Shown here: positions 1 to 19,892 of the stretch, piece by piece
Layout of the letters: each line of letters begins with the position of its first letter
Numbering within the stretch: position 1 is the first letter of the stretch
Source of the DNA: Terriglobales bacterium
Lineage (GTDB): Bacteria > Acidobacteriota > Terriglobia > Terriglobales > Acidobacteriaceae
NCBI GenBank assembly: GCA_050014035.1
Contig: JBEKED010000001.1
Span: 1-59,448, forward strand
DNA: 59,448 bases
Direction of reading: 5' to 3'
Notes under the pieces: generated by a model
Told to the model about the DNA's origin: nothing
The model's input: only the letters and a program-made list of their open reading frames with translations
The model's database searches: none
Made by a program: the position numbers and the translations under genes

Positions 1-680
1 ATCCCGTGGTCGACCACCGCCGTCAACGAAGCTTGCATTTGCTCACGCCGCATCCCCTCGTCAACTCGCGAATACCGATAAGCCAGCGCCAGCGCCTGAT
101 CCACATTCGCCGCGACCGAAACCGCATGGAACATCTTCACCACGCTCCCCACCTTATATCCAAAATCGATCCGGAAAGGATCTCCCAGCCCCGTGTACTT
201 CACCAGATCCAAATCTCGTTGCATCAACTCCAGCACTCCCGCATCGGTGAACGCGTCGCACATGGTGTTCACAATAGCAACCCGTCCGCTACGCTGCTGC
301 ACTCGCTCACCGCGTCCCATTGGAACTAGGTACATCGAAGTCAGCAAGTCCATCTCTTTCGCCGGATCCTCCGTCAGCACCGCCTTCGTAGGCCCCACAT
401 CGAGCATCGTCCCAAATCGTTCGTTCATAAGTTGCATCAGTTCTTCCCGCCGTCGCAAACTCCCCAGTCGTCCGCGGATCTCCCGCTCCACCATCTCGAA
501 CCACTCCAATTCCACATCCGGAGCCACGCACTGCAGCATTCGCCAGTCGCGAGTAAACCGCACCTCGGCAAATCCACCATCGCTTTCCAGCAACAACAGT
601 CCGACCGTAACGAAGTCATCCCGCAAGGCATGCGGCAAGAATCGCAACAGATAAAGTTCGAGTTGTCGCTTCTCAGCCAT
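1..680 (-). CDS. DUF3037-like protein (partial; C-terminus lies beyond the left edge)
   Basis: Absent from the ORF track because it runs off the window. A reverse-strand ATG at 680-678 opens a stop-free frame down to position 1: MAEKRQLELYLLRFLPHALRDDFVTVGLLLLESDGGFAEVRFTRDW... The N-terminal pattern (RF-x-P ... D/E-F-x-x-VG-hydrophobic run) matches my memory of DUF3037, a family that typically sits next to a HipA-like kinase. Confidence 0.65.
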   Translation of the reverse strand, partial: MAEKRQLELYLLRFLPHALRDDFVTVGLLLLESDGGFAEVRFTRDWRMLQCVAPDVELEWFEMVEREIRGRLGSLRRREELMQLMNERFGTMLDVGPTKAVLTEDPAKEMDLLTSMYLVPMGRGERVQQRSGRVAIVNTMCDAFTDAGVLELMQRDLDLVKYTGLGDPFRIDFGYKVGSVVKMFHAVSVAANVDQALALAYRYSRVDEGMRREQMQASLTAVVDHG

Positions 681-704
681 CCCGTGAACCCCTGTGCGCC
701 CTTT

Positions 705-750
705 GGTTCAATCTTCTCTGCAATCTCAGCGTTCTCTGCGTTCAGAAAGA
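705..750 (-). repeat. Triple-word intergenic element, copy E1 (word GCAGAG/GCTGAG)
   Basis: Plus strand reads GGTTCAATCTTCTCTGCAATCTCAGCGTTCTCTGCGTTCAGAAAG. It lies between the stop of the HipA-like gene (757) and the DUF3037 start (680). Same architecture as the copies at 1576, 3368 and 11809. Confidence 0.6.
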
Positions 751-756
751 CGCCCG

Positions 757-1563
757 CTAAGCCTCGCTCTCCCACTCCGGAAACGGCCGCCGCGGCGACC
801 CCCGAAACGCCAGAATCAGCTCCCGCACCAGCGTCTTCCGCGCGATCAGCCGTTCGACCAGCGCCTCCAACTCATCCCACGACCCGCCATACCACCCCGG
901 AGGTATCTCTCCCGCAACTCGCCAGATCGCATCTTCATCCAGCTTCTCAATTCGCGATAACCAGGGCTCGAACGACTCCCATCCACTAACCCGCGCATAT
1001 ACCTCATTCCGCGGATACACTCCACGCAATGGAAAATCCGGAAACGTCCACTCCCCTGCATTAAAGCAATACCCCTGATCGATGAACGCCGCCGAGTATT
1101 TCTTCTCCCGCATCTTCCGCCAGAATGCCGCCTGCCTTCCATCCGCATTGCATGTCCATTTATCCAGCGCCAGTATCCCCGCAAACGTACTGAGGTTCCG
1201 CACCCGGTCCAACATCTCCGGAGGCAAGTAATCGAGCACCTGCCCTTCCACCGGGCTCACCACATACCGTGACCCAAACTGCAACCCCGCCTCCACTTGA
1301 ACCTCATGGCTCCCCAGCACAATCGTCAATTCCGCCGTGTGTTCCACCAGCCACGGCTTTACCTCCACCACCTCCGCCGCCGGCACCGGCAGTCCCACCC
1401 GCTCCGCCAGTCGCGTAGCCAGAAACTCGTTAGCCAGTACCCGCTCATGCTGAGGATTATTCCGAAACTTCACCACGTAGTAATGCCCATCGTCGCACCG
1501 CATCAAATGTCCCTGCGCCCCACCCCGCATCCGCTTAACATGTTGGACCGCAGTAGTAGGCAT
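757..1563 (-). CDS. HipA-like serine/threonine kinase (kinase domain only)
   Basis: The ORF track gives 757..1632. Kinase-type motifs are present: YYVVKFRNNPQHERVLANEFLATRLAERVGLPVP, LALDKWTCNADGRQ, AFIDQGYCF. I prefer the start at Met24 (1563), because residues 2-23 (KSFTTGNTGDHRETF) are simply the translation of repeat element E2. Confidence 0.75.
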   Translation of the reverse strand: MPTTAVQHVKRMRGGAQGHLMRCDDGHYYVVKFRNNPQHERVLANEFLATRLAERVGLPVPAAEVVEVKPWLVEHTAELTIVLGSHEVQVEAGLQFGSRYVVSPVEGQVLDYLPPEMLDRVRNLSTFAGILALDKWTCNADGRQAAFWRKMREKKYSAAFIDQGYCFNAGEWTFPDFPLRGVYPRNEVYARVSGWESFEPWLSRIEKLDEDAIWRVAGEIPPGWYGGSWDELEALVERLIARKTLVRELILAFRGSPRRPFPEWESEA

Positions 1564-1575
1564 AAGTCCGGAAAA

Positions 1576-1611
1576 GGTTTCCCTGTGGTCCCCTGTGTTC
1601 CCTGTGGTGAA
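1576..1611 (-). repeat. Triple-word intergenic element, copy E2 (word CACAGGG)
   Basis: Plus strand reads GGTTTCCCTGTGGTCCCCTGTGTTCCCTGTGGTGAA. Clearly homologous to 3368..3405. Confidence 0.7.
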
Positions 1612-1716
1612 GCTCTTGCCTCTAGCCGACACCGGCAGAGGCGACGCCAGAAACCGCCACCATCAAGATACAAGCGCCAAAAAGTCCTGCCTGTGACAAC
1701 CGCACACAGAGAATGT

Positions 1717-3312
1717 TCACTTTCCCGCCAGTCCCACCGCCGCACGCTTCCATTTCCGCCCCGCTTCCTCCTTCCGCACCGCCCAGGCAATCGCGATAGC
1801 CATCACGCAATCGTCGTGCGCGCCCCCAGAAGCTCCCGTTCCCCCATCCCTATCCCGCACAAACGTCCGCAATTCCTGCAGCAGCCGCGAACTCCGGAAC
1901 AGCCCCGGCTCGTCGATCAACGCATCCCCCAGATTCTCGATCATTTTCGGACGACTCACCGCCGTAGTCGCCCACCCACCCTTCGCTTGCGCAAAAACCT
2001 TCGGATAGCCAAAATTCTCCAGATGCGCCAGCACCCCATTCCCGTGATTATTGCCCTCCACTGCCAGCAGCGCCGTATTGTATTCCTTCCCCAGTTTCAC
2101 CAGTTTCTGCGCAAACTCCCGCAAAGGCCAATGTCCGTGCAGCTCCGCACACTGCGTTCCCAGGTCCCGATCGATCACTTCCGCGCACGAATAATCCCCG
2201 TCGATCCCGCCTCCCGCCGGATCGGCTCCAATCACGTACTCCCGCCCCGGATGCGTAGGCAGCCAAATCAGCAGTCGATCGTTATCCCGCGTCTCGAACG
2301 GTTCGCCCGAAATCTCGAAAGCTCGATCCAGCGACGCTAGGTCAAACACGCATTCCCCCGATACCAGGAAACACGACACCGCATCCTCGGCATATTCCTG
2401 TACTGCCCGTCCTCGCAATGACGCCCATTGTTTCCGCCGCCATGCGATCTGTTCATCCTTCAGCCCGTGAAGGTTCTTCAGCTGTATCTCTTCTTCCGTC
2501 AGCGGCGCACAATTCCCGCAATCCTCAAGAACGTACGCCTCGTCATACCACCACGGGAAAAAGTGCCTCCTGTACCCCGTATCCTCCGCCCGCTGCCACT
2601 CCTCATAGAAAAGTCCGCCCGCTCCATTCGGAGTCGACTCCAGCACAATGTCTCCGTCCGGCACCACCGCCGCCCGCAACGAGGCCAGCGCCTCATCTCC
2701 TTCTCGCCCCCAGCGCGACACCTCCGAGCAATGCAGATTCTGGATCGTCCGCCCTCGTCCCGCATTCTCCACCGCCGAAGCCAGGCAGTATTCGCTGTCC
2801 AAACTCGGAAACACCAAATGCCGCGCGCTGCGGTACGAAGTTCGCAGGCAGCCTTTCCGTGCCTCCTCCGGCAAATTCTCCCAGAACCGCCGCACGATCC
2901 GAAAAATGTCCTCCGCCGCTTCCCTGTCCTGCGTTACCTGCATGCTCAAAGTGCCCGGCTGCGTGATCGTCTGCACAAAGAATCGAGCCGCAATGTACGT
3001 TGTGACTCCCACCTGTCGCGCCTTCAGCACCACATTTTTCTTAGCCTTCTCCCGCGAGCACACCCGCGAATATTCCAGTTGCGCCCGGTTTAAATGCAGC
3101 GAGATCCGGCCTTCCCTCTTCGTTCGGATCTTCAAAAATTCTTCAATGAAGCCATCCCGATTCGTTGGTTCTCGTGAATTCCCCGGCTCTATTCCCTCCC
3201 CAAGCGCTCGGTGAAACTCCCAAGGTTCATCTAAGTGCTTTCCGAACTCCGACAAATAATCTTTCGTCCAATCAAAATTCACCACCACCAGCCCATAAGA
3301 GCCCCGACCCAT
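1717..3312 (-). CDS. Phage terminase large subunit (apparently intact, orphan)
   Basis: 531-aa ORF. It has the terminase ATPase motif VLKARQVGVTTY plus LESTPNG. The C-terminal RNase-H-like nuclease acidic motifs are also present (VIGADPAGGGIDGDYS, LLAVEGNNHG, AHDDCVMAIAIAW). Confidence 0.85.
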   Translation of the reverse strand: MGRGSYGLVVVNFDWTKDYLSEFGKHLDEPWEFHRALGEGIEPGNSREPTNRDGFIEEFLKIRTKREGRISLHLNRAQLEYSRVCSREKAKKNVVLKARQVGVTTYIAARFFVQTITQPGTLSMQVTQDREAAEDIFRIVRRFWENLPEEARKGCLRTSYRSARHLVFPSLDSEYCLASAVENAGRGRTIQNLHCSEVSRWGREGDEALASLRAAVVPDGDIVLESTPNGAGGLFYEEWQRAEDTGYRRHFFPWWYDEAYVLEDCGNCAPLTEEEIQLKNLHGLKDEQIAWRRKQWASLRGRAVQEYAEDAVSCFLVSGECVFDLASLDRAFEISGEPFETRDNDRLLIWLPTHPGREYVIGADPAGGGIDGDYSCAEVIDRDLGTQCAELHGHWPLREFAQKLVKLGKEYNTALLAVEGNNHGNGVLAHLENFGYPKVFAQAKGGWATTAVSRPKMIENLGDALIDEPGLFRSSRLLQELRTFVRDRDGGTGASGGAHDDCVMAIAIAWAVRKEEAGRKWKRAAVGLAGK

Positions 3313-3367
3313 GTAGCGGCGGATTCATTCCGCCCCGCATATTCCCACGCATCGCACCGATCCAGCA

Positions 3368-3405
3368 GGTTTTCCCCTGTGCCCCTCTGTGTCCCCTGTG
3401 GTAAA
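3368..3405 (-). repeat. Triple-word intergenic element, copy E3 (word CACAGGGG)
   Basis: Plus strand reads GGTTTTCCCCTGTGCCCCTCTGTGTCCCCTGTGGTAAA. It lies between the stop at 3437 and the terminase start at 3312. Confidence 0.7.
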
Positions 3406-3436
3406 GCTTTTGATGTGTCCTGCACAGAAGCCGCCC

Positions 3437-5956
3437 TCAATGCGTCACGCTCAGACTCTCCGGCACGTACACGTAAGCTCCAATCTCCCACCCCAATCCA
3501 TACGAATCCTGATTAATTCCCAGCAGGTCGTATTGATACTCCGCTCCCAGATTCAACCCCGCATCCCGCACCGGAGAATTCACCGTAGGCCGAAAATCCG
3601 CCGCCACTCCATTCCCACCGCATACGTAAAAGCTGCCCGCCACATAGCCCGGCGGCACCGCATCGTTCGCCGCGCATGATTGCAGCAGGTTCACCATCTG
3701 CGTGTTCGACTCCAGAGTCGCGCCTCCTTGCACCAGCGCATCCATAAAGTTTTCAACCTCATCCGGCCGCAACTCATTCACGTGCCAGAAATATCCGATC
3801 GGTCTTCCCCAAAGCGCGTTCTTGAACACATCCTGACTAACCAGGTTTCGCATCTGCTGATAACTCAGATGTTGGTAGTTAGGCACTGCCCCCTGGCTCA
3901 AAATGTTGAACACGTCATATCCCTTAGCCAGCGTCGCATCCGCCCCACCCAGAACCCACGTCGAAGTAAGAGACCCCGTCCCGCGCACTCCCTTGAATCC
4001 CAGCCCGCTGGCGATGTTTTCCGTCAATGCGTCTCCGTAAGTACCGGGCATCACGTACACCAGATTGTTGAGATTCAATCCGGGAAGCCCCGAAAGGTAC
4101 TGGTTAAACCAGCTTAACGCCCAAGTCATCTCGTCGCTTTCAAGATGCGTTTCATCGAACAGCACGCATCCCGGAGTCGAAGGAACTGCGGTACAACTGG
4201 AAGCCACCGGCAAACTGCTCGGTAACGTCATCGGCCCCGCCACTCCCGGACTGGAAAATGTGTCGGCCAGCGAAAAGGCGTGTGCCCGCCCCTTCGCAAA
4301 TTGACTGTTGTATGCGGTAGCATCCACCGCATAGCAATTCGGCTCTGCCTGTAGAGTCGCCACGATATTCGCCAGCGTGTCGATCTGTCCCGTCCCCGCC
4401 GTTCCCCCCGGCGGCACCGGAGTCAGATCCCACGAGTGATAGCAAGTCGGATCGTAAGGCGAAGTCGTAAGCGTCAGGTTCCCCCCTCCGCCGCTGTGCG
4501 TGATGCTCAGCGTGTAACTTCCCGGCCCCACGTACGCCAGCAGAAAAGCGTCGCAAGGGATCGGCCCCGCCGCATCGTTGCATGACGTAGTCGAAGGCGG
4601 ATTCCAGTATTGATGCGAGACGGAATGCGTATTGATATCCCACCCCGCATTGATCCATCCCTGCACCTCCCCGATAATCGACTGCGATTCCAACCCGTTG
4701 GTGACCACCGCAATCGAAAGCGGCACCTTCTTCGCCGCCATCATCGGCAGCAACCCGTTCACATACGTATCGCTGTACTCAACCAGCCCGGGATCGTCAA
4801 AAGTCACCGTCGTATAAGCCGGCCACCGCTGCCACGCATGCACCCAAGGCGGCGTTTCAGCCGGTATATTATGTGTTCCTCCCGTCGGTCCAGGCGTGCC
4901 CGCAACATCCACAGCCAATGCCGTGGCCAGATAGTTGCCATACAAATGGCAGTAGTCGTAATTCACCGCTCCGTCCACCGCATCAAAAATCCCGTACGTC
5001 CGGTTGCCATACGCCCGGCAGTTCTTAATTTCGAAGTAGCACCCGCCGCCACTGCATCCAGACCCAGGGTTTTTGAAGCTGTAGCCCATGTAATTCATGT
5101 TCGCGTCGGTGTTGTAAAGATGGATGTCGACGGGTGTCCCGCTAGGTTGCACATAGAAACCCAACGGCACCGTGCTGTTCTCGACTTCACTGTTAGACGC
5201 GATATTTGCCAGCCAAAGATGATCACTTAGCCCCTGCACCTGCACTCCATAGGAGTCGAACCAGTCAATCTGCAGATGCTGAATCTCCAGCCACGAGACG
5301 GAATTCAGATTCAATACTGTCTCCCCGCTCAGCACAATCGGCGCAACCAGGCGCGAATACCCCGCATTCGTCGCCGGATTCCCCTCGGCGCTGTACACAT
5401 ACAAAATGTAATTCGTCGAGTCGTACCAGAAATCCCGGTCGTGGCTCAGAGCGCTCTCGCTCCCTTGCGCCGTACCCCACACCGTCCCAAACCGTACATA
5501 CTGCAACTGCGTCGGCGGCTGCGTCAGGCAATAAAACCCCCGCACCCCGCACTGCATCACCGTCGTCAGCCCGCTAGTGGCCGAATAAAGCGTAGCCGCC
5601 CACACATTCGTATTAGGAACCTGCGTCCACCACTGTTGCCCCACCGGCAAATACCCCGTCAAGTGCGGCGGCTGGCCAGTCCCATAACTGTCGATCTTGA
5701 TCAGCGCGCCCCCCGTAGCCGGGTTAGTCCCACTCGATGGCGGAGTCAAAGTCTCGTTCCAGGTACAGTCCCGCAACAGGTTGATCGTGTCACCGGGCTG
5801 ATAGCTGCTGATCCCAACCTCCAGCAAAGTGCGCCAAGCCAGTTGCGGACTCGTCCCCGGATTCCCATTCGACCCATAATTACAATCGACGTAGTAATTC
5901 GAGGCACACGCCAGCGGCGCTCCCAGACATAGAAGCATCAACAATTTTGTCATCAT
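3437..5956 (-). CDS. Secreted beta-helix protein fused to a polysaccharide deacetylase (CE4/NodB-like) domain
   Basis: 839-aa ORF with a signal peptide (MMTKLLMLLCLGAPLACA/SN). The N-terminal half looks like a parallel beta-helix. The C-terminal half carries NodB-type motifs (VTFDDPG, NTHSVSHQ). Confidence 0.8.
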   Translation of the reverse strand: MMTKLLMLLCLGAPLACASNYYVDCNYGSNGNPGTSPQLAWRTLLEVGISSYQPGDTINLLRDCTWNETLTPPSSGTNPATGGALIKIDSYGTGQPPHLTGYLPVGQQWWTQVPNTNVWAATLYSATSGLTTVMQCGVRGFYCLTQPPTQLQYVRFGTVWGTAQGSESALSHDRDFWYDSTNYILYVYSAEGNPATNAGYSRLVAPIVLSGETVLNLNSVSWLEIQHLQIDWFDSYGVQVQGLSDHLWLANIASNSEVENSTVPLGFYVQPSGTPVDIHLYNTDANMNYMGYSFKNPGSGCSGGGCYFEIKNCRAYGNRTYGIFDAVDGAVNYDYCHLYGNYLATALAVDVAGTPGPTGGTHNIPAETPPWVHAWQRWPAYTTVTFDDPGLVEYSDTYVNGLLPMMAAKKVPLSIAVVTNGLESQSIIGEVQGWINAGWDINTHSVSHQYWNPPSTTSCNDAAGPIPCDAFLLAYVGPGSYTLSITHSGGGGNLTLTTSPYDPTCYHSWDLTPVPPGGTAGTGQIDTLANIVATLQAEPNCYAVDATAYNSQFAKGRAHAFSLADTFSSPGVAGPMTLPSSLPVASSCTAVPSTPGCVLFDETHLESDEMTWALSWFNQYLSGLPGLNLNNLVYVMPGTYGDALTENIASGLGFKGVRGTGSLTSTWVLGGADATLAKGYDVFNILSQGAVPNYQHLSYQQMRNLVSQDVFKNALWGRPIGYFWHVNELRPDEVENFMDALVQGGATLESNTQMVNLLQSCAANDAVPPGYVAGSFYVCGGNGVAADFRPTVNSPVRDAGLNLGAEYQYDLLGINQDSYGLGWEIGAYVYVPESLSVTH

Positions 5957-5981
5957 GATTTTTGTGAGTTGGTAACTTATG

Positions 5982-8900
5982 CTAGTTCTGCATCTGATAG
6001 GTCACGGTTGCGACCATTCCAGCGGCGTTCGTGCTGCAACCCGATGCAGCAGTCGTGACCTTGATTCGCAACAGATGTCCCGCAGTAACATTCGTGCTCC
6101 CCGTAACCTGGGAGTAGAAATTGTTGCCCGACGTAAGTGGAATCGAATAACCGCCAACCTCCGCCCCCGCCGTTCCATCCCAAACCTGAACCACCGGATA
6201 AGTCGCGCACCCCACCGGAGCAGTGTTCGCCGCAAAGTCGAAGCCGGTAATCGTCAACCCGGCAGGAATCGTCCAATTGCAGTTTTGCGAGGCCGATGTC
6301 GACCCCGCCACCGGACAAGTCCAATTGAAATAAGTCTCGCTCTTTACATAGGCTGTTGTCGCCAGTTTCGTCGAGTTATCTCCCACGCTTTGTGTGGTTG
6401 CCGTCGTCCCATTCGGCAATGTCGGCGTCCCGCTCAAATTCGCCGCCGTCCCCGTAGTGTTCGCCGCGTTGTTTGGAATGTCGCTCGAGAGCAGAGTCGG
6501 TAACTGCGCATGGGGTAATGTTCCGGTCGTGACCTGACTGGCGGATACCACGATGTTCCCGGTCAACGCGTTCCCGTTCACTGTAGTTGAGGTCGGAACG
6601 TACCCAGGCAATACCGTGCCGGAGGGGAGAGTAGGGGTGCCGGAAAGATTCGCCGCCGTCCCCGTAGTGTTCGCCGCGTTGTTCGGAATCTCCGACGCCG
6701 CCAGCAACCCCCCGCTCAGCTGAGGAATATCGCTGCCCGTACTTCCCACCGTGTACGACGTCCCCCACGCGCTCCCCGTCGAATTCGCAATCCCCGCCCC
6801 CGGCCACACCATCCCGCCGCCCGACGGCATACACGACGCCCCACTACTCAGCTGGCAATGAAACGCATTATCCGATCCCACGCCCATTGAAAAATTCATC
6901 CCGCTAGGAACCGTAACCGAAGTTCCCGTCCATTCCACCCCCGACCACTGCGTCGGACCCGACCCCGTCTGATTAATATTCCCCGCCACGTTAAGATTTC
7001 CGCTCAGCGTAACCGTACTCGAAAATGTCTTCGCCCCCGTTATCGTCTCTGCCCCCGCCAGGTGAACGACAGTCGAGTCCACCGCAGCCCCCGTAACCTG
7101 CCCCACGGAATAATCCCCAGTAGCCGCCGTCACCGCGCCCGTCCGTCCAAATACCGAACTCACCGCCCCGCCTCCGCCGCCCCCGCTCGGAGCTCCAAGA
7201 CTCACCCGCACATTGCCGCCTTCAATTCTCCCAATCACCTGCACGCCCGTCGGCCGCGTGGTTGATCCCGTATCGTGACACTCTCCCGCTTGCGTCGTAC
7301 TGGCAACCACGTAATCTCCCGCCACCGGACTGCCCGCATCGAAATTACACACGGCTAATCCCGCCCACGTGATCACCGCTTTGTTCGACGTTCCCGCCCC
7401 GCTGCTGACAATGCCGACCACTCCATCCGTACTCGACGTAGACGCCGTCTGCACCCCGCTCGCCCCGCTGTTATAAACCGCCAAAGAATTCAGTGTCGTG
7501 CCGTTTGTCCCGTCGTTCTGATACTCGAAATCCTGCCGGCCCGTGCTGTATATATTGAACGACGTCTTCGCGAACACGCTCCGCATCGCCTGCCCGCTGT
7601 CGGTCCCGATATCGTAGCTATTGTCCGTGCTCGGCTTCAATGCGCCCGTCGCCGCGAACCCCCACTTCAAACTCGACCCGATATACATCCCCAACCCCAG
7701 CGCGTTGCCGCTGGTCGCATCCTCGCTCCGCAACACCTGGTAACCGCTCGCCGTGTCGTACCCCATCGACATCCGCGTCCACTGCGTGTTGTTCGTGTAG
7801 GTCGAATACACCCGGAAGTTCTCCGCGTTACTTCCATTCCTCTCCTCTAAGTAATAGGCAGGGTTACCGCCCCCCGGATCCGAATTGAACAGGGTAGTAA
7901 GGCCCAGCTGCACCGCTTGCCCATTATTGTCAATGAAGAATGGCGCGTGTTTCGAAATATCAAACCAGAACACGCCCCAGTTATTAATCCCACTCGGCTG
8001 CGTCGTTTCAGGCAGTTCAATCAAATCCGGCGTCGTGCAATTCGCATTTCCATTCGCCGCAATCCCCGTCGCAAACGACCCGCTGCACTGCGTCGGAGTC
8101 GCCGCCAACGCCAGCGCCGTTCCCGCCTGTCCACTGATATTCGAACTAGTAAGTGCAACCTGCTCCGTTGTTCCTCCAATGTTGACCACTGGCAACCCCG
8201 CGGCCGTATCAAGTCCAATTCCGCCCACCGCTGGAACGTAGCCGCTCCCCGCCGGCAATACCAGGTTCCCGCTCACCGCCACATTAGTAGTAAATGTCTT
8301 GGCCCCGGTGATCGTCTCGGCATTCGCCAGGTGCACCACCGTTGAGTCAACCGCAGCTCCGGTAACTTGTCCCACCGAGTAATCCCCCGTCGCCGCCACC
8401 ACTGCGCCCGTTCGCCCGAACACCGAACTAACACCCCCACCGCCGCCGCCCCCCGATCCGCACGCACTTCCAGTTGACGTAATTAACCCGGACACAACAT
8501 TCAGGCAACCATTCGTTAGCCCAGGAAGCGTTACGCTCTGGTCGAACTGCGCCGCAACATTGAATTCCTTCAGCGTTCCCGTGAGCCGCTCCAGCCAGTT
8601 CGAGTGAATCCCGTCGCCAGTCTGCGCGATGTAATTCGTGATCGATATCGGCGCCCCAAATGCCAGTTGCCCCGCACTCGCATACACGTTCCCCGGCGTG
8701 TCCGTCCCAATCCACGTGTCATTCGCACTTGCCGGCGGACGAAATCCCCACGTCGATTGCGTCAGCGTCGGCTGCGAATCCAGCAGCGTGATAATGTGGT
8801 GCGCCGAAATAAGTGACCCTGGCGTGCCCGTGAAATTCAACCGCCCTTTCGTCAATGTCATCCCATTGCCGACATTTGCCCCATCGCTCAACAACGTCGC

Positions 8901-11732
8901 TGTCTGATTCGGCACCGCGTTATTCGAAGATGTCACACTCGCCAGACAGGTCGTATAACCTCCCGGCGACGGTACCCCGTAGTTCGTGCATAGACTGGCG
9001 ATCTGCAATGGATTTCCGAACAGCCCCACCGCTACCGCACCCGCCTCGTCCCGATCCACGATCACTGGAGTGCTCACCGACACGATCGAACCCGGCCAGA
9101 AGTTAAGTGTCCCGGTGTAATGGCCCGGTTTAATGGTGTACGCCGAGGTGGACGACGATCCGTTATCTGTATAACTGCAAACAAATCCGCCCGAGCAGGC
9201 CGCCGCCTGGGTCAGTCCTTTTGCCACATATCCGCATATCCCACCCGCTCCTCCAGGGCATCCTCCGCTATACGGAAACACTGAACCCACACTGGCTGGA
9301 GTCGCTATCCGCAGTACGTCATAAGTGATCCCATCCGCCCCATTTGCTACCCTGGGCCAGCGCACCGGAATCGACTCTGTTCCCGTCGATAGCCAACTCA
9401 TGATCTGCATCGGAGAGGTTTGCACATTAGTCGTCGTGTCATTAGCCACGATGAAATATGTGTACGGAATCGACCCGCTTCCACCCGCCGCAAACCCTCC
9501 CGTCGTGCCCCCATTCCCGGTAATCTCAAAACTCCCACTCGAGGCTCCCGCAATCAAACCCGCGATCCCGAGCCCAGGAAACGGAGATGTCGCTGGAGAT
9601 TGCGGGTTTAGTGCGTTGCTGTCCTCGGAATAGATGTTCTTGAGATATGCTCCCTGATAGTTCCCCGTGGTGTTCGATGCGTATACTTCCCACGGTCCCG
9701 TCGCTTGCAAAACTGTGTTCTCGATATAAAGCCCATTCGAGTTATAGTCGGTCACTCCATTCGAATAATTTGCCGTGATCGTCGAATCCCGCAGCGTAAT
9801 CACCGGCGCAATCGGCAAACTTTGGTTCCCTGCCGAGAACACGAACGATCCCGTCCAGTTCGCGTTAGCGTTCAGCGAAATGCCCTGATTGTTGAAGTGA
9901 TCGATGGTCGCATTCTCATCGTCCCACAGGTCGAAAAAGTTGTTGAAGTGGCCGTTCTCTGAATCTTTGTCATAGGAAATGTCCACCAGATGCGTGTCCA
10001 TCGCGTCGTCTAAAACCGCCACATACGCCAGCGCTACCACTCCAGGGCTTGTCTGCGCCGCAATATTAGCTGCCGTGTGCGCATACTGAAATGTGGTCGA
10101 GTTCGGTACCGCCGTGATCGTCGCATCCCCCCAGTAGCTGCTGTTGTCGGTAAATAAAATCGTCACCATATCCCCGACTCGAAAGCCATGCGGGCTCGCC
10201 GTCGTGATGGTCACCACCTGCGATGTCAACTGCGTTTGCGTGATCGCCACTCCCGCAAAAGATGCGTTGCTCGAAACATTGACCGGCGTCCGAAAGCTCA
10301 GCCCCGCAACCGTGTTGTCCGTGTAGTCGTTCGAGTACCTTAGATCGCCGATCTGCAAGCACGCCCCGCGCCCAAGGCAGTTCAGTGACGTCCCGTAGCC
10401 GCTCAGAATTGATTGGTTGCTATGCAGGTAGATGGTTCCATAGATGTTGTAGGTGTTAATCGTGCTGTTCGGCCCGTTCGCTGGAATCGTCACATTGCAC
10501 TGACTATTCTTGTACTGCGTCGCACTAACTCCGCAACCCGCATTCAGCGTCTCTTGTATACCGGAGGAGGCTGAACCAATGGTATATCCCGCCGCATAAG
10601 AGTAGAACGGAGTGAACGTAATCGTCCCTGACCCCGCTCCTGACATGCATCCCCCCGCCGCCGCGATCACACTCACCGCTTCGCTATTGCCTCCTCCAGT
10701 CAGAAGAACTTGATACCCGGCTCCACTCGTCGTATCAATGCCCGTCGGACACGGCGTCAGCGTGACCGTTGCCTGGGTTCCACCAGTTAACGTACTGGAC
10801 ATCGTTTGCGTCCAATTCAACGAAGTCGTCGCATACGTGATCCCCGCCGGCGCGCCCCCGCCACAGGAACCCCAGGTCGAGTTTCCATTCAAACACGTTG
10901 CTGAACTGGCCACTCCCGCACCCAGTTCCCCGGGAGGAACCGTCCCATTCACCAGCCCCGCTTTCACCGCCAGCCCGTTGTCCACATAGTTCCGGTCTGC
11001 TGCCTGGTTCGGCGACGTCGGATCCGCCGGCAACGTCAGCGGTCCAGTCATCGTCCCGCCCGCCAGGGGAAGGTACGCTCCCGCGCCAACATTCTGTACT
11101 GCCGTATCCACATAGTTCTTATTAGCCGCGTCAGTCGGCTGCACCGGCGCTGGCAGTAAAGGGGACGCTGTAAACTGCTTCGTGCCCGTTATCGTTTCCG
11201 TTCCCGCCAGGTGTACCACCGTGGCATCGACCGCCAGCGGCGCGATCGCCGCATTTACATACTCCTGCGTAGCTGCCAGATTCCCCAGCCCCGTATCCGG
11301 AGTCGTCAGCACCTCCGCAATCGTCACCGGCGATGTTGTCGGAACCGACCAATACTCAGTTCGCACCGTTCCATCATCCAGTTGGAAAACCGCAACATAC
11401 AACGTTCCCGCCGGAGTCGCTCCCACGTTCGGCACCAGCTGTGCCGTAAACGCCCCGAGCGGCCCGATCGTCACCGCCAGGTTGCCCGCCGCCACCGCAT
11501 CGCCCGCCGCCGACTCGAACGTCGGCCACGAAATCAGCACCGTACCCGACGCTGTCGTTCCGTCCGCCCGGTACACCGTATCGCTGATGGTCGTAAGCGC
11601 TGGTCCCTGGGCTTGCAATGTAGTCGACAACGATAACAATGCCAACGCCAACGCCGACAGCAGCACCCGTAAACTCACCATCCCCGTTGCCATCGGGAAG
11701 CACTCGTTATTCACCCCATACCATCTGCGCAT
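5982..11732 (-). CDS. Giant secreted tail-fibre-like repeat protein (~1916 aa)
   Basis: The ORF track gives 5982..11774. I prefer the ATG at 11732, which lies 8 nt after the SD GAGGAGAG. The product begins MRRWYGV...MVSLRVLLSALALALLSLSTTLQA/QG, a signal peptide. Phage tail-fibre collar motifs are present (PLAGGTMTGPLTLPADPTSPNQAADRNYVDN), and a VVHLAG(T/A)ETITG(T/A)K(Q/T)F module occurs three times. The protein is rich in Gly/Thr/Ser/Asn. Confidence 0.85.
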   Translation of the reverse strand: MRRWYGVNNECFPMATGMVSLRVLLSALALALLSLSTTLQAQGPALTTISDTVYRADGTTASGTVLISWPTFESAAGDAVAAGNLAVTIGPLGAFTAQLVPNVGATPAGTLYVAVFQLDDGTVRTEYWSVPTTSPVTIAEVLTTPDTGLGNLAATQEYVNAAIAPLAVDATVVHLAGTETITGTKQFTASPLLPAPVQPTDAANKNYVDTAVQNVGAGAYLPLAGGTMTGPLTLPADPTSPNQAADRNYVDNGLAVKAGLVNGTVPPGELGAGVASSATCLNGNSTWGSCGGGAPAGITYATTSLNWTQTMSSTLTGGTQATVTLTPCPTGIDTTSGAGYQVLLTGGGNSEAVSVIAAAGGCMSGAGSGTITFTPFYSYAAGYTIGSASSGIQETLNAGCGVSATQYKNSQCNVTIPANGPNSTINTYNIYGTIYLHSNQSILSGYGTSLNCLGRGACLQIGDLRYSNDYTDNTVAGLSFRTPVNVSSNASFAGVAITQTQLTSQVVTITTASPHGFRVGDMVTILFTDNSSYWGDATITAVPNSTTFQYAHTAANIAAQTSPGVVALAYVAVLDDAMDTHLVDISYDKDSENGHFNNFFDLWDDENATIDHFNNQGISLNANANWTGSFVFSAGNQSLPIAPVITLRDSTITANYSNGVTDYNSNGLYIENTVLQATGPWEVYASNTTGNYQGAYLKNIYSEDSNALNPQSPATSPFPGLGIAGLIAGASSGSFEITGNGGTTGGFAAGGSGSIPYTYFIVANDTTTNVQTSPMQIMSWLSTGTESIPVRWPRVANGADGITYDVLRIATPASVGSVFPYSGGCPGGAGGICGYVAKGLTQAAACSGGFVCSYTDNGSSSTSAYTIKPGHYTGTLNFWPGSIVSVSTPVIVDRDEAGAVAVGLFGNPLQIASLCTNYGVPSPGGYTTCLASVTSSNNAVPNQTATLLSDGANVGNGMTLTKGRLNFTGTPGSLISAHHIITLLDSQPTLTQSTWGFRPPASANDTWIGTDTPGNVYASAGQLAFGAPISITNYIAQTGDGIHSNWLERLTGTLKEFNVAAQFDQSVTLPGLTNGCLNVVSGLITSTGSACGSGGGGGGGVSSVFGRTGAVVAATGDYSVGQVTGAAVDSTVVHLANAETITGAKTFTTNVAVSGNLVLPAGSGYVPAVGGIGLDTAAGLPVVNIGGTTEQVALTSSNISGQAGTALALAATPTQCSGSFATGIAANGNANCTTPDLIELPETTQPSGINNWGVFWFDISKHAPFFIDNNGQAVQLGLTTLFNSDPGGGNPAYYLEERNGSNAENFRVYSTYTNNTQWTRMSMGYDTASGYQVLRSEDATSGNALGLGMYIGSSLKWGFAATGALKPSTDNSYDIGTDSGQAMRSVFAKTSFNIYSTGRQDFEYQNDGTNGTTLNSLAVYNSGASGVQTASTSSTDGVVGIVSSGAGTSNKAVITWAGLAVCNFDAGSPVAGDYVVASTTQAGECHDTGSTTRPTGVQVIGRIEGGNVRVSLGAPSGGGGGGAVSSVFGRTGAVTAATGDYSVGQVTGAAVDSTVVHLAGAETITGAKTFSSTVTLSGNLNVAGNINQTGSGPTQWSGVEWTGTSVTVPSGMNFSMGVGSDNAFHCQLSSGASCMPSGGGMVWPGAGIANSTGSAWGTSYTVGSTGSDIPQLSGGLLAASEIPNNAANTTGTAANLSGTPTLPSGTVLPGYVPTSTTVNGNALTGNIVVSASQVTTGTLPHAQLPTLLSSDIPNNAANTTGTAANLSGTPTLPNGTTATTQSVGDNSTKLATTAYVKSETYFNWTCPVAGSTSASQNCNWTIPAGLTITGFDFAANTAPVGCATYPVVQVWDGTAGAEVGGYSIPLTSGNNFYSQVTGSTNVTAGHLLRIKVTTAASGCSTNAAGMVATVTYQMQN

Positions 11733-11771
11733 GTCTTTTTCTCTCCTCGTAAGCGCGCGCGAAGCTTGGCC

Positions 11772-11800
11772 CAATAAGAAAGCCGCTCAATTTGAGCGGC
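11772..11800 (-). terminator. Rho-independent terminator after the phosphatase gene
   Basis: Minus strand reads GCCGCTC-aaatt-GAGCGGC followed by TTTCTTATTGG. It lies between the phosphatase stop (11895) and the tail-fibre-like start. Confidence 0.6.
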
Positions 11801-11808
11801 GCCCGAAA

Positions 11809-11860
11809 GGTTTTTCCCGTCTTTCTCTGTATTTCTCTGCGTCCTCTGCGTTAAGGTTTT
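11809..11860 (-). repeat. Triple-word intergenic element, copy E4 (word GCAGAG/ACAGAG)
   Basis: Plus strand reads GGTTTTTCCCGTCTTTCTCTGTATTTCTCTGCGTCCTCTGCGTTAAGGTTTT. Confidence 0.6.
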
Positions 11861-11894
11861 TGACTTTCGCCGCAACCGCACGAAAACCCGATGA

Positions 11895-12359
11895 TCACTC
11901 TGAAGCCCGCGGCTCGCTCTCCATTCGCGACGACACATATCGCCGCACGCTCTCCACGTACACATCCGCGAAATCCACCACCGGCCTGCATCTCTCGATC
12001 AGCACCATCGCCGCTTCCATCTCCCAATCCATTGCACAGAGCACTGCCAGCGTCATCATCGGCGCCCGGTGCACCCCCGCCGCGCAATGAATGTAAAGTC
12101 GCGCTGACGGTTCGTCCAGCGCTTCCAACGCAAAATCCACCCCGCGTTGCAGCAATTCCGACGGTTTTGGCAGAAAATCGTCGTCCGTAGGATTCCACAG
12201 CACCCGGATGCCATGCGGTGCCGCCAGCGGCCCGTCATCAAACTCGATCTGCATGTCGAGCACGTGCGTCACTCCCGCCTGCGCCAGTTCTTCCATGTTC
12301 CGCGCGTTCCAGATCCCACCCCCCAGCGCGATTCGCTCCGTGACCCAGGATATGTCCAT
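11895..12359 (-). CDS. Dual-specificity / tyrosine protein phosphatase
   Basis: 154-aa ORF with the CX5R active-site loop (IHCAAGVHRAP) in a DSP-sized protein. Confidence 0.85.
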   Translation of the reverse strand: MDISWVTERIALGGGIWNARNMEELAQAGVTHVLDMQIEFDDGPLAAPHGIRVLWNPTDDDFLPKPSELLQRGVDFALEALDEPSARLYIHCAAGVHRAPMMTLAVLCAMDWEMEAAMVLIERCRPVVDFADVYVESVRRYVSSRMESEPRASE

Positions 12360-12432
12360 GCTGCGTTCCGCCGCACCCTCCGGCCCAATCCTCAGTGGCT
12401 CCCTAGCACTCTTCTGATTCTACGTCACTCCC

Positions 12433-12465
12433 CAAAATAGAAAAGGGCGCGATTTGCGTCGCGCC
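12433..12465 (-). terminator. Rho-independent terminator after the sigma-like gene
   Basis: Minus strand reads GGGCGCGA-cgcaaa-TCGCGCCC followed by TTTTCTATTTT, 40 nt downstream of the stop at 12507. Confidence 0.7.
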
Positions 12466-12506
12466 CTTCGGAGTTCTAAATATTCTTGACTCTTATATCC
12501 AGAATA

Positions 12507-13088
12507 TCAGATCACAGGGGGTAAACGGACATCTTTTTCATGTTTATTTTTGCCATCCTTTGAACCACTTACGTCGAAATCATAGCTTTCACCCCCTTGA
12601 CAACTTTCAACCCCACAAGTCGCCGACCCCATTTCTTCCAACAAACCGCCCGCGAGTAGTATCCGCCCGAGTTCGTCGAGCGCCTCCTGTAAGCGGCGGC
12701 GCACGCTTCTGGGCGTACAACCGAGCAGTCGTGCGACCTCATGCGCATCGTATTCTTCGAGAATATTCATCGCTAGCAACCTTTTGTCGATTGCGCTCAA
12801 CTTATCGATCGCCTTCTCCATATCGGTCACAAAGATCACAACGTCTTCGAAGTTCCTCATCGTGTATGACGTCACCCGTGTTCGGAAGAACTCCCGACCC
12901 AGCAGCGACGGCAGTCTCCCTACCTCGACCGAAGCTCGGGCATACCGCCGCAGCAGCGCTGTTGTGCGTGCGCGGTAAGGCCACATTTCCATCTCCGTTT
13001 CGGCAAACAACACCGATGGTGGCGGTCCTGCCTGTCCCATCAGACTCCGTGAGTCTGCGTTCATGGTTTGCACGCTTGTCATGCCCAC
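12507..13088 (-). CDS. Sigma-70 region-4-like HTH protein (no recognisable region 2)
   Basis: 193-aa ORF. The central segment LSAIDKRLLAMNILEEYDAHEVARLLGCTPRSVRRRLQEALDELGRIL matches the sigma-70 region 4 HTH pattern. It overlaps the upstream zinc-ribbon ORF by 10 nt. Confidence 0.6.
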   Translation of the reverse strand: MGMTSVQTMNADSRSLMGQAGPPPSVLFAETEMEMWPYRARTTALLRRYARASVEVGRLPSLLGREFFRTRVTSYTMRNFEDVVIFVTDMEKAIDKLSAIDKRLLAMNILEEYDAHEVARLLGCTPRSVRRRLQEALDELGRILLAGGLLEEMGSATCGVESCQGGESYDFDVSGSKDGKNKHEKDVRLPPVI

Positions 13089-13369
13089 ACCCCCATCGTA
13101 GCCACGCCCTGCAAAGACTCAATTCGTCCCGAGTTATGGGGGTGTTCTCTTCGACCCGTCGTTTCTTGTCCTTGCGCTCGCGTTCTGTGTCGGCGTCCTT
13201 CCCGGGGAAGCGCCTCCCCAGACTTTGGCATCGCCGCCAAACAGATACGGCAACCGGCGCAATACACGCCGTCTGCTCCCTGCGGACGCAGCCACAATCC
13301 GCCGCACCGCTCGCAATATTTCAGTTCGACTTGGATTTGCGGACTTTCCATTCTGCCTATGAAGTTCAT
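13079..13369 (-). CDS. Small zinc-ribbon protein
   Basis: 96-aa ORF with a strong SD (AAGGAGAGG) 5 nt before the ATG. It has two CxxC pairs (CERCGG ... CAGCRIC). It is translationally coupled to the sigma-like ORF. Confidence 0.6.
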   Translation of the reverse strand: MNFIGRMESPQIQVELKYCERCGGLWLRPQGADGVYCAGCRICLAAMPKSGEALPREGRRHRTRAQGQETTGRREHPHNSGRIESLQGVATMGVWA

Positions 13370-13402
13370 GATTGCCTCTCCTTATGAAATGGGACCATTC
13401 AA

Positions 13403-13443
13403 ACAATAAAAAGCCCTGGTGCCGACTTCTCGGCCCCAGGGCT
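13403..13443 (-). terminator. Rho-independent terminator after the YezD-like gene
   Basis: Minus strand reads AGCCCTGG-ggccgagaagtcggca-CCAGGGCT followed by TTTTTATTGTTTG. Confidence 0.7.
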
Positions 13444-13492
13444 CGTTTCTCTTACGATGACCTGTAATGCTATTTATTTAGAAATGCAGTAG

Positions 13493-13720
13493 CTACTGTA
13501 ACCGGGCGGCAACCCCGGACTCAGATTGCCGGAAGTAACCTTCCTCGTAGCCAGACTTGAGCACCTGCCCGTTTTGCACCAGGACGCTCAGCCGCCCATT
13601 GAAGCGAATAACCTGCAGTAACCGTTGCATCGCTGCAGAGAGCACTTCCGCCGAGCGTACTTTCCGGCGGAACTCTCCGAAGTGTTTTTCTTCATTCTCG
13701 TGAGACTGTGTTTCTATCAT
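13493..13720 (-). CDS. Small YezD/DUF2292-like protein
   Basis: The ORF track gives 13493..13741. I prefer the start at MIETQ (13720), which follows the SD GAGAGG. The C-terminal segment LLQVIRFNGRLSVLVQNGQVLKSGYEEGY resembles the YezD pattern (FGS-V-x-I-x-VQDGKVV). The family assignment is tentative. Confidence 0.5.
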   Translation of the reverse strand: MIETQSHENEEKHFGEFRRKVRSAEVLSAAMQRLLQVIRFNGRLSVLVQNGQVLKSGYEEGYFRQSESGVAARLQ

Positions 13721-14135
13721 GACAGGTAACCTCTCTTGCATTTATAAGTAGATTATGAAACATAGTACTGTCTTATAGTACAAACCTATCCTTAGTAAGT
13801 CAATAATTACGTTACTGTGATGTTGTAACCTATACGTATGTCAGCCTTACAGACGGCATCCTATACTGCGACATCGAATCCTTCCCTGCTTTATGGAAGT
13901 AAGAACCTTTAAGTAAAGTCAAATGTGCCGACATCGGAGGCCGCAGGTTCCAGCGTGGAAATTCAACTAAGATGGAACTGCAAAGGATACTATGCAGGTG
14001 TACAAAAGTAGGTATTCATTGTCCGATAGCATTAATGAGGATGGAAAGGTCCGTGAATTATCTTTCCAGGCGATCACATGCCCGGGTCTTCAACGGGAAA
14101 GTCCTCGACGGGATTGCCCCGTCCCCACGGCAAGA

Positions 14136-14798
14136 CTAGCCACGTTCAAACACGTGCTTTTCTTCTAACTGCCGAACCGCTGCAGCCATGTCGCCTTCAT
14201 AGCGCTCTCTTTGCTCAATTAGCGCCGGGAGCGCGGTGGCATGGCGCCGCGCCATGGTGAAGAGCCCTTGCTTTGCGACTTCAGCCGCGATCTCAGCAAG
14301 GTGATCGACGGTGGTATCGAGGTAGAGGCTTTCAATCGGGTCGCCCAGCCACACATCTCCGCCCACCAGACGCGTTTGCCAGTACACCTTGCGCTCGATC
14401 ATGCGCGAAATTTCTTCGTCGCTAGCCTGGCCGAAACTCCACTTCTTGAGCTTGAAGTTGTAGTGTCTGCTGGAAAGAGGCAGCGGCACCAGTTTGCCCG
14501 ATTTCACGAACTCCGTCTGCTTCTGATCGACTTCCTTGCGCAGAGCATTGATGACCAGGCCTTCTGTGTCTTTCGGTTCGAGGGAAGGCAGCGCTTCCCG
14601 TAAAGTGGCGGAAAGATTCACGGCCACCAGCGCGCGCAGGTCATCGGAGTTTTCCAGCGTGACCACAGTATGCAGAACCTCAAAGTCCGCGCCCGACGTG
14701 GCGTGGTGAAAAGGCCATTCGAGTTTGAAACTGAGTGGCAGTCCAGTGCGGGTGACATAGATGGTTTTCGGCGTGGTACTCTGGTTCGGGGTGCTCAT
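14136..14798 (-). CDS. Hypothetical protein (220 aa, no recognised family)
   Basis: Long ORF with normal (not Arg/Pro-skewed) composition, and no better ORF on either strand. I recognise no motifs. Confidence 0.6.
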   Translation of the reverse strand: MSTPNQSTTPKTIYVTRTGLPLSFKLEWPFHHATSGADFEVLHTVVTLENSDDLRALVAVNLSATLREALPSLEPKDTEGLVINALRKEVDQKQTEFVKSGKLVPLPLSSRHYNFKLKKWSFGQASDEEISRMIERKVYWQTRLVGGDVWLGDPIESLYLDTTVDHLAEIAAEVAKQGLFTMARRHATALPALIEQRERYEGDMAAAVRQLEEKHVFERG

Positions 14799-14852
14799 AG
14801 GATCTTTGCCAATATTGTAAGCCGTTATTTTAACCTTGATGCATTGCTGAGC

Positions 14853-16118: not shown

Positions 16119-16220
16119 GGCAGACCGAGTGTTTTACCATGTCCGGGACAATAATGGAGAACAAACCGACGCAGAGCGTCTTGATTGGCGAAGCGGAATA
16201 AAATGTCCGCCCTACACAAC

Positions 16221-19007
<2,787 letters not shown>

Positions 19008-19128
19008 TCACTATTTTAACACAGAAAGCGCGCATTTCGGGGTCGGAATCGAGACGATAAACTGCGCTTTTTGTTGCTCTTAGGAACGTACTTTCGAGTG
19101 CAGGACAGCGCTCCCGAGCGATCGGATT

Positions 19129-19866: not shown

Positions 19867-19892
19867 AGCTCCATGCTACCAGCGTCCGATCG

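Follow-up and report, generated by a model that had tools for sequence, protein, structure and literature searches.

The first two genes of a 59,448-nt stretch of DNA from a Terriglobales bacterium (contig JBEKED010000001.1; the whole of this analyzed stretch is called the window below) raise the question of what a HipA-like protein kinase and a DUF3037-domain protein do side by side within a cluster of phage-derived genes. An initial annotation of the window had read the two genes as a module of no assigned function, immediately downstream of phage-derived genes and next to an orphan terminase, and had proposed a kinase-based toxin/partner system or an anti-phage module. In our analysis, the two genes formed a cassette between the genes of the large terminase subunit (TerL) and the portal protein of a conserved head-tail cluster. 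We favor, at about an even chance, a moron-like kinase/neutralizer cassette that acts in phage defense.

The kinase open reading frame (ORF) runs on the minus strand from an ATG at position 1563 to a TAG at position 757, and its 268-aa translation contained all three motifs (VVKFRNNPQHERVLANEF, LDKWTCNADGRQ, and FIDQGYCF) on which the initial annotation had based its HipA-type kinase core. In the Pfam search the protein matched HipA_2 (PF20613) above the gathering threshold (E-value of 7.3e-13; 48.8 bits with a cut-off of 27), with the match covering profile positions 7–122 of 240 only, and HipA_C gave 24 bits, under its cut-off of 30.5. Neither HipA_N nor Couple_hipA, the N-terminal domains of HipA, was found in the kinase by Pfam at E ≤ 0.1, in agreement with the initial annotation. 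The kinase also matched phrog_3162 in PHROGs (9e-17), and a search of NCBIfam gave nothing meaningful for either the kinase or the DUF3037 protein. An in-frame GTG at position 1632 is a possible alternative start that would add 23 codons; the homologues of the kinase, which carry the NCBI name "HipA family kinase," start mostly at ATG and have a modal length of 268 aa. The kinase was present on eight public contigs that were read for it, and the kinase and DUF3037 genes each had hundreds of close homologues.

Five residues of the kinase, K32, E46, D134, N139, and D162, were all retained in 89 of 89 cluster-associated copies. Among 53 diverse homologues with 37–62% identity, K32, D134, and D162 were invariant, and E46 and N139 were conserved at 90% or more. 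The invariant Lys/Asp/Asn/Asp set, predicted to comprise the ATP-binding Lys, the Asp and Asn of the catalytic loop, and the metal-binding Asp, was intact in the window kinase, so that a catalytic-type Asp/Asn pair of the kind on which the initial annotation depended was present on alignment (D134 and N139). The AlphaFold2 (AF2) model of the kinase was of moderate confidence, with a predicted local distance difference test score (pLDDT) of 69 and a predicted template-modeling score (pTM) of 0.67, and Foldseek returned weak matches with template-modeling (TM) scores of up to 0.43. The better matches were all atypical protein-kinase-like folds, namely Fam20C, CtkA, PI4KIIa, HipA, CotH, and HipT, and included HipA 3fbr and HipT 7ab4, which weakly suggested a kinase-like fold for the model. 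A sequence search of the PDB with the kinase and the DUF3037 protein, singly or as a profile, gave nothing significant. Chance ORFs or pseudogenes were ruled out for the pair by the Pfam scores, the conservation, and the ratio of nonsynonymous to synonymous substitution rates (dN/dS).

The partner ORF starts on the same strand with an ATG at position 680, 76 nt past the kinase stop codon, and leaves the window at position 1. Of its codons, 226 are in the window; the remaining 41 and the stop codon lie past the edge. The full-length protein, encoded on contig L001 and also available as P0121, is 267 aa. Its match to DUF3037 (PF11236) was above the gathering threshold (E-value of 2.8e-11; 44.1 bits with a cut-off of 22.6) and placed residues 11–117 on profile positions 3–117 of 118, so that both domains of the initial annotation held in Pfam, the kinase as HipA_2 and with HipA_C under its cut-off. 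The DUF3037 domain is the N-domain of the protein, about residues 1–120, and the C-terminal ~145 aa lie outside any known family: in four divergent members this part had no Pfam match at E ≤ 10, DUF1829 included. Foldseek found nothing with the AF2 model of the DUF3037 protein (pLDDT 53), the best E-value being 0.34.

The domain boundary in the DUF3037 protein was set by a paralogue, in which a DUF3037 N-domain is joined to a LexA-type Peptidase_S24 C-terminal half (LexA C-terminal domain, LexA-CTD). This fusion is widespread, with at least 55 protein clusters, and is annotated as "LexA" by NCBI and JGI. Its N-domain was 78% identical with residues 1–120 of the partner, its S24 part was ~71% identical with genuine Terriglobales LexA, and the AAG cleavage-site, GQSM, and LKR motifs were kept. 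In 7 of 7 contexts (five look-ups together with L036 and L042) the fusion gene lay between the kinase gene and the ordinary DUF3037 gene. From these sequences, the DUF3037 N-domain appears to take the place of the LexA DNA-binding domain in an SOS-cleavable protein, a replacement that would fit a releasable inhibitor or repressor, and suggests that the fusion is a cleavable inhibitor or repressor module. Many DUF3037 homologues (for example P0130, P0132, and P0163) are named "chorismate mutase" by JGI, which had no Pfam support and is probably a propagated mis-annotation.

To place the pair in its genomic setting, we used a genome scan of one genome per species, in which at least 560 genomes contained a close relative of the kinase, and a contig of 69 kb (L001) that was 98.9% identical with window positions 1..11563. 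The synteny counts rest on the best 80 of the at least 560 genome loci, and the best 80 listed kinase matches were all from Acidobacteriota/Terriglobia. The DUF3037 gene adjoined the kinase gene downstream in 77 of the 79 assessable loci, a conserved pairing as the initial annotation had supposed. TerL was directly upstream of the kinase in ~74 of the 80 loci, and the portal gene with the same head-tail genes followed the DUF3037 gene in at least 68 of the 80, the order TerL-kinase-DUF3037-portal being found in ~74 of 80 species-representative Terriglobia genomes and on three independent long contigs. On L001, the stop codon of the DUF3037 gene is followed by a gap of 427 nt and then by the portal gene (PF04860, 7e-40). 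The terminase is thus not an orphan, since the portal and head-tail genes follow past the window edge, and the cassette is not downstream of the phage-derived genes, as had been stated, but inside the head-tail cluster; the end of the window falls within the cassette, which is why its context was misread.

The pair was also kept in 26 of 29 viral-contig loci, down to a kinase identity of 53%. Three viral contigs (L105, L106, and L108) carried relatives of the TerL and portal genes directly adjoining each other, with no pair between them, and because of this arrangement the pair is predicted to be dispensable for building particles. At three other loci (L030, L038, and L043) the pair was found away from head-tail genes, in L030 near a tyrosine integrase gene. 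A tblastn search of cultured-phage records with the kinase and the DUF3037 protein gave no match. A plasmid search gave only two HipA_2 kinases, 25–27% identical, one of which lies in an unannotated stretch; the other, on a Peribacillus plasmid (L200; NZ_CP133765.1, 53603–54379; 27% identity), lies amid glycosyltransferase/dTDP-rhamnose genes and has no DUF3037 partner, and therefore the kinase family is wider than the paired systems.

Both genes of the pair are under purifying selection, and they differed in their rates. The kinase was the best-conserved protein in the cluster (72–98% identity), compared with 52–94% for TerL, 56–95% for the portal protein, and 29–91% for the DUF3037 protein. 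The median dN/dS was 0.061 for the kinase, 0.079–0.113 for four structural genes, and 0.156 for DUF3037.

The cassette was bounded on both sides by conserved non-coding features. The upstream element, ~65 nt long, starts from the stop codon of TerL, ~100 nt ahead of the kinase ATG, and consists of GTGAACA..N17..TGTCACAGGCAGG followed by ~21 nt and TATCTT. It was conserved in ~35 close-clade loci where TerL was only 60–75% identical, and an analogous element, GTTCATnCGTCACA-N22-TAAGAT, was found in the distant clade. The core motif, GTCACA-N21-TATCTT, had a single occurrence in the window and another in L001, and GTCACA-N20-23-TANNNT was ruled out as a cluster-wide promoter by having no repeat elsewhere in either. 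The element contains a TAnnnT hexamer; a scan for consensus sigma-70 promoters called none upstream of the kinase, conserved element included, and an Rfam search of the cassette and its gaps gave no match. At the 3′ side, just beyond the window (L001 11863–11886) and between the DUF3037 and portal genes, there was a terminator-like hairpin with a 10-bp stem, a GAAA loop of the GNRA type, and a T-run (ACGGCACGGC-GAAA-GCTGTGCCGT, then the T-run). Of 77 loci, 59 had such a hairpin ahead of the portal gene; its stem showed compensatory changes across species, and wherever cargo was inserted it lay 3′ of the extra genes. The gap between the kinase and DUF3037 genes was 10–140 nt in most relatives and was itself an insertion site, occupied in some loci by a 23S_rRNA_IVP gene or by a DUF3037::Peptidase_S24 gene. 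Together with the other cargo genes found in relatives (Table 1), this arrangement marks the TerL-portal junction as a putative cargo hotspot. Prophage morons are independent transcription units between the late genes of lambdoid and HK97 phages. The predicted anatomy of the cassette is that of a moron, because the upstream element, the terminator, and other cargo occur in the same junction: like a moron, it is inserted between two genes essential for morphogenesis, carries a conserved non-coding element on its 5′ side, closes at the 3′ side with a factor-independent terminator, and occupies a slot in which other accessory genes also collect. Unlike classical morons, which are patchy, the window cassette is near universal in its element, and its promoter is only a candidate.

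The statement of the initial annotation that such a pair has no assigned function was outdated. A HipA-like kinase with DUF3037 is the PADLOC candidate PDC-M66. In the Retron-Sda1 locus, the pair is sufficient to protect E. coli from phage Bas51, with the retron reverse transcriptase and non-coding RNA dispensable; deletion of the kinase abolished the defense and deletion of DUF3037 was toxic (PMC12548924). The architecture was independently found in E. coli prophages and validated by DefensePredictor as DS-6, renamed HipAD, in which mutation of the predicted catalytic residue led to loss of defense and AlphaFold3 predicted contact between the A and B proteins; in DS-6B, DUF3037 is followed by a C-terminal DUF1829 domain (PMC13092281). 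The window pair has the same order, a short HipA-like kinase first and DUF3037 second on the same strand, here with the 76-nt gap. Its best PADLOC matches were PDC-M66A for the kinase (1.1e-9, 35.9 bits, partial, with the N-terminal half only) and PDC-M66B for the DUF3037 protein (0.005, 14 bits, ~70 residues; 2.4e-7 for one relative). HipAD has also been reported from prophages, like the window pair in its phage-derived cluster. In contrast to PDC-M66, which is scattered in defense islands, the window cassette is fixed between TerL and the portal gene, and some of its relatives have a three-gene form with the DUF3037::LexA-CTD protein. Judged by sequence, the window pair is a distant relative or variant of the PDC-M66/HipAD architecture.

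The resemblance to HipBA and HipBST was broader. The kinases belong to the same kinase-fold superfamily, as the names HipA_2 and HipA_C indicate, and by analogy the window pair probably shares the logic of HipBA, a growth-arresting kinase checked by the product of an adjacent gene. However, the window kinase is 268 aa in length compared with ~440 aa for HipA, and its loop, D-K-W-T-C-N-A-D-G-R-Q, is without the His and Asn at the HipA positions; no sequence match of the window kinase to any solved HipA was found. There is no gene for HipB (with its XRE-type helix-turn-helix) or HipS; the gene upstream of the kinase is TerL, and the partner is downstream. Canonical HipBA was ruled out by the lack of N-terminal domains and of a HipB gene and by the HipA_C score under its threshold.

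The reading that we favor is one of defense. In its favor are the architecture shared with the validated systems and the experiments on them, the anatomy of the cassette and its place in a cargo hotspot, the dispensability of the pair for its element, and the faster evolution of the partner; we infer the defense function of the window pair from its distant relatives. In the proposed mechanism, the DUF3037 protein would bind the kinase and hold it inactive via the N-domain and would probably act as a repressor of the cassette through the conserved upstream element. A signal sensed by the variable C-terminal domain of the partner would free the kinase; candidate triggers are a phage product or stress and, in the LexA-CTD variants, RecA-stimulated self-cleavage. 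The freed kinase may be toxic by phosphorylating essential host targets as its presumed substrates, so that growth would stop and the infection would be aborted. A role of the partner as sensor or neutralizer fits because its dN/dS of 0.156, compared with that of the kinase, marks it as the faster-evolving protein. The proposal of a toxin/partner or anti-phage module was thus a reasonable default, because the domains, the pairing, and the residues are intact and the same architecture has published defense and toxicity, but the module is not like typical mobile defense cargo in that its position is fixed and the kinase is its best-conserved part.

The cluster around the cassette, of ~25 kb, comprises window positions 1–13741 and L001 positions 11564–20807, and its gene order was kept in most of the 80 genome loci. 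Past the portal gene in L001 there are approximately nine further co-oriented genes, one of which encodes a head-tail adaptor (phrog_442, 5.9e-11); PHROGs and Pfam searches of the remaining cluster proteins recognized the head-tail adaptor alone. At the other end, a dual-specificity protein phosphatase gene, a sigma-like gene, and an ORF of 82 aa (Table 1) form a conserved head of the cluster, and the kinase and the phosphatase thus share one element. The phosphatase gene was directly upstream of the fiber gene in seven genome loci and at least 579 metagenome contigs, and its product could be the counterpart of the kinase. Beyond ~14 kb the window is ordinary chromosome, with gyrB, queA, a TonB-dependent receptor gene, mnmG, tldD/pmbA, and recJ. 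The names of homologues in NCBI also put the host in Terriglobales, of the phylum Acidobacteriota. GC skew was −0.15 to −0.34 across the cluster (window positions 1–14000) and near zero in positions 14000–59448, and the G+C content was similar in the cluster and the rest of the window (0.54–0.60). A gene for a 2-oxoacid-dehydrogenase E2 component flanked the cluster in five genome loci (L007/L019, L023, L074, and L084), and the other flank, with genes in the order gyrB, membrane protein, and 220-aa protein upstream of the 82-aa, sigma-like, and phosphatase genes, was found whole or in part in ~17 metagenome contigs, with gyrB reached in three. The divergences of flanking and cluster genes were correlated (Spearman coefficient of 0.66–0.77, n = 15–17). 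No integrase, replication, or lysis genes were recognized in the cluster, most proteins of which are without annotation. Because of the fixed synteny, the recurrent flanks, the purifying selection, and the lack of recognized mobility functions, these data suggest that the cluster is a vertically inherited, functional, phage-derived element, which may be similar to a gene transfer agent (GTA). The element resembles RcGTA in being a head-tail cluster of ~25 kb with TerL, portal, and adaptor genes and no recognized integrase or replication genes, flanked by gyrB-side genes and the E2 gene where visible and under purifying selection. In contrast, RcGTA is without a kinase/DUF3037 cassette, fiber genes precede TerL only in the window element, and, unlike a GTA, some contigs of the window element are classed as viral in IMG/VR.

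Several observations weigh against the defense reading. The stability is unusual for a defense system: the cassette is fixed at one position across at least 560 species, the flanks were conserved chromosomal genes wherever contigs extended far enough, and purifying selection in the cluster is strongest on the kinase. The cluster also encodes the phosphatase and the sigma-like factor, whose presence points to a regulatory role instead. The PDC-M66 matches were weak or partial (1e-9 with the N-terminal half for A; 5e-3 for B), and the C-domain of the window partner is without the DUF1829 of DS-6B. The AF2 model of the DUF3037 protein, with its pLDDT of 53, was unusable, probably because the alignment was shallow (78–90% identity). 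In one species-level genome, L084 (8324–12226), the order is TerL-kinase-portal and no DUF3037 gene adjoins the kinase gene, although the kinase retains K32, E46, D134, N139, and D162; this is awkward for an obligate toxin/antitoxin pair. Finally, in a non-significant profile match to CtkA (E-value of 0.21), which served solely as an alignment guide, kinase position 141 lay opposite an Asp of CtkA and HipA that we take to be catalytic. This position (window codon ~1143–1141, minus strand) is Asp in 43 of 43 close-clade kinases, the window kinase included, and Asn in 43 of 44 distant-clade kinases. We favor D134..N139 as the predicted catalytic loop over D141 as the catalytic base, because it is invariant and has the +5 spacing; either this holds, or the chemistry of the distant clade is altered at position 141.

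The strongest alternative, which we nevertheless consider rather unlikely, is that the cassette regulates the phage-derived element and, with the phosphatase and the sigma-like factor (and with the DUF3037::LexA-CTD protein in some lineages), forms a switch for the expression of the head-tail genes and the production of particles in the manner of a domesticated, GTA-like element; the kinase might phosphorylate the regulator, or it might block host translation in the cells that make particles. The near-universal gene order in ~74 of the best 80 of at least 560 loci, the conserved flanks (~17 contigs on the gyrB side and five loci with E2) with their correlated divergence, and the lack of recognized integrase, replication, and lysis genes all point in this direction, as do the purifying selection on all tested cluster genes, strongest on the kinase, and the conservation of the phosphatase and sigma-like genes in the cluster. 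The LexA-CTD fusion just before the portal operon has the architecture of an SOS-cleavable repressor, and L084 retains the kinase without DUF3037. However, the cluster has relatives that are without both genes (L105, L106, and L108), the pair occurs outside head-tail clusters (L030, L038, and L043), and the same architecture is a stand-alone defense system in other bacteria. Moreover, the terminator insulates the cassette from the portal operon that it would control, and many cluster proteins are unannotated, so that lysogeny or lysis genes may have escaped recognition. A more far-reaching form of this alternative, which we consider more doubtful still, is that the cassette, the phosphatase, and the sigma-like factor are the phospho-regulatory switch of an undescribed, vertically inherited GTA-like element in hundreds of Terriglobia species, with the SOS-cleavable DUF3037::LexA-CTD protein taking part in some of them.

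It is improbable that the pair is a pure addiction module, which would retain the cluster by post-segregational killing and have no defense or regulatory role. The architecture is toxin/neutralizer-like, deletion of DUF3037 was toxic in the homologous system, the pair is central in a cluster retained across hundreds of species, and PIN-domain genes of the toxin-antitoxin type occur in the same hotspot. On the other hand, the other cluster genes, with dN/dS of 0.08–0.11, indicate that the cluster is kept for a function of its own; L084 has lost the presumed antitoxin and kept the kinase, cluster relatives persist without the pair, and the homologous systems give measurable defense. Very improbable is a virion-associated effector, carried inside the head and passed into the recipient cell along with the DNA, with DUF3037 as its chaperone or immunity factor in the producer: the gene lies between terminase and portal in the head-assembly part, and the best Foldseek matches in BFVD were kinase-like domains of very large phage proteins whose annotation is ADP-ribosyltransferase or portal fusion, but these matches were weak (TM of 0.3–0.45) and came from a moderate-confidence model, the window kinase is without fusion to a portal or MuF-type domain in Pfam, the pair also occurs outside head-tail clusters, and a terminator and an upstream element of its own speak for expression apart from that of the late genes.

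Kinase/DUF3037 modules as a type were already known, and the HipA-like kinase with DUF3037 was only recently validated as an immune system. New here are a distant member that has a different C-domain in its partner and a fixed place in a conserved cluster of phage origin, in one of the major soil phyla, and the predicted three-gene, SOS-linked form in relatives. The lineage offers several handles on such systems: hundreds of orthologous pairs with a slow kinase and a faster partner; a partner N-domain recombined with different C-domains, including a self-cleaving LexA domain that points to a testable trigger; a genome with the kinase alone; and a conserved candidate operator. Our literature search found no paper on a GTA-like or domesticated phage element in Acidobacteria, which are among the most abundant soil phyla; if functional, the element would be the first described for them, and it would have an unusual kinase/phosphatase control layer. 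The features of the cassette, its cluster, and the related loci are listed in Table 1.

Table 1. Features of the cassette and its surroundings; positions are those of the window unless a contig (L) is named
Feature	Position	Strand	Basis or remark
HipA_2-family (atypical protein-kinase-like) Ser/Thr kinase, 268 aa	757..1563	minus	Translation and Pfam PF20613
DUF3037-domain protein, first 226 of 267 codons	1..680	minus	Translation and Pfam PF11236
Spacer between kinase stop and DUF3037 start, 76 nt	681..756	minus	Sequence poorly conserved among relatives
Conserved non-coding element, candidate promoter and/or operator	1662..1727	minus	Alignment of upstream regions
TerL, 531 aa, directly upstream of the cassette	1717..3312	minus	phrog_2, 4.3e-28; weak Terminase_6C and GpA_ATPase
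Secreted beta-helix/polysaccharide-deacetylase-like protein, 839 aa, tailspike/depolymerase candidate	3437..5956	minus	Weak Pfam Beta_helix and Polysacc_deac_1; syntenic in relatives
Fiber/receptor-binding-like protein with BppL_N repeats, 1930 aa	5982..11774	minus	Pfam BppL_N, 2e-12; syntenic in relatives
Dual-specificity protein phosphatase, HCxxGxxR, 154 aa	11895..12359	minus	Pfam DSPc, 3.8e-8, 33.7 bits with a cut-off of 33.5
Sigma-70 region-4 protein, extracytoplasmic function (ECF)-like, 193 aa, head of cluster	12507..13088	minus	Pfam Sigma70_r4_2, 2.8e-8, above cut-off; syntenic in metagenome loci
Conserved 82-aa protein, first gene of conserved cluster	13493..13741	minus	tblastn synteny in ~35 metagenome loci; no family match
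DUF3037::LexA-CTD fusion genes	L036 10817–11716; L042 10904–11716; L202–L206 5001–5777		
PIN_3 gene at the TerL-portal junction	L049 12133–12540; also L060, L062	minus (opposite strand)	
23S_rRNA_IVP four-helix-bundle gene at the TerL-portal junction	L012 10882–11358; also L014, L022		
SDH-type ClpP-like protease fragment and 208-aa ORF at the TerL-portal junction	L011 11789–13003		
Unannotated 236-aa ORF at the TerL-portal junction	L024 3029–3739		

Some minor observations were made on the cluster and its flanks. In some relatives, a divergent gene for a 248-aa protein with a helix-turn-helix-like N-terminus lies just upstream of the 82-aa gene (L124 7667–8413, minus strand), and a gene for an M13-peptidase-like protein adjoins it in L124, both judged from translation alone; the window is without this stretch of ~3.3 kb and has only ~400 nt at positions 13742–14135. 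Two complete copies of the cluster were found on two contigs (L018 and L020) of one metagenome-assembled genome (MFD09222.bin.1.125), which reflect either a true duplication or a bin composed of more than one strain. At positions 55817–58429 on the plus strand, the window also encodes a host Ser/Thr protein kinase in which a Pkinase domain is joined to PD40 beta-propeller repeats; this protein is unrelated to the cassette.

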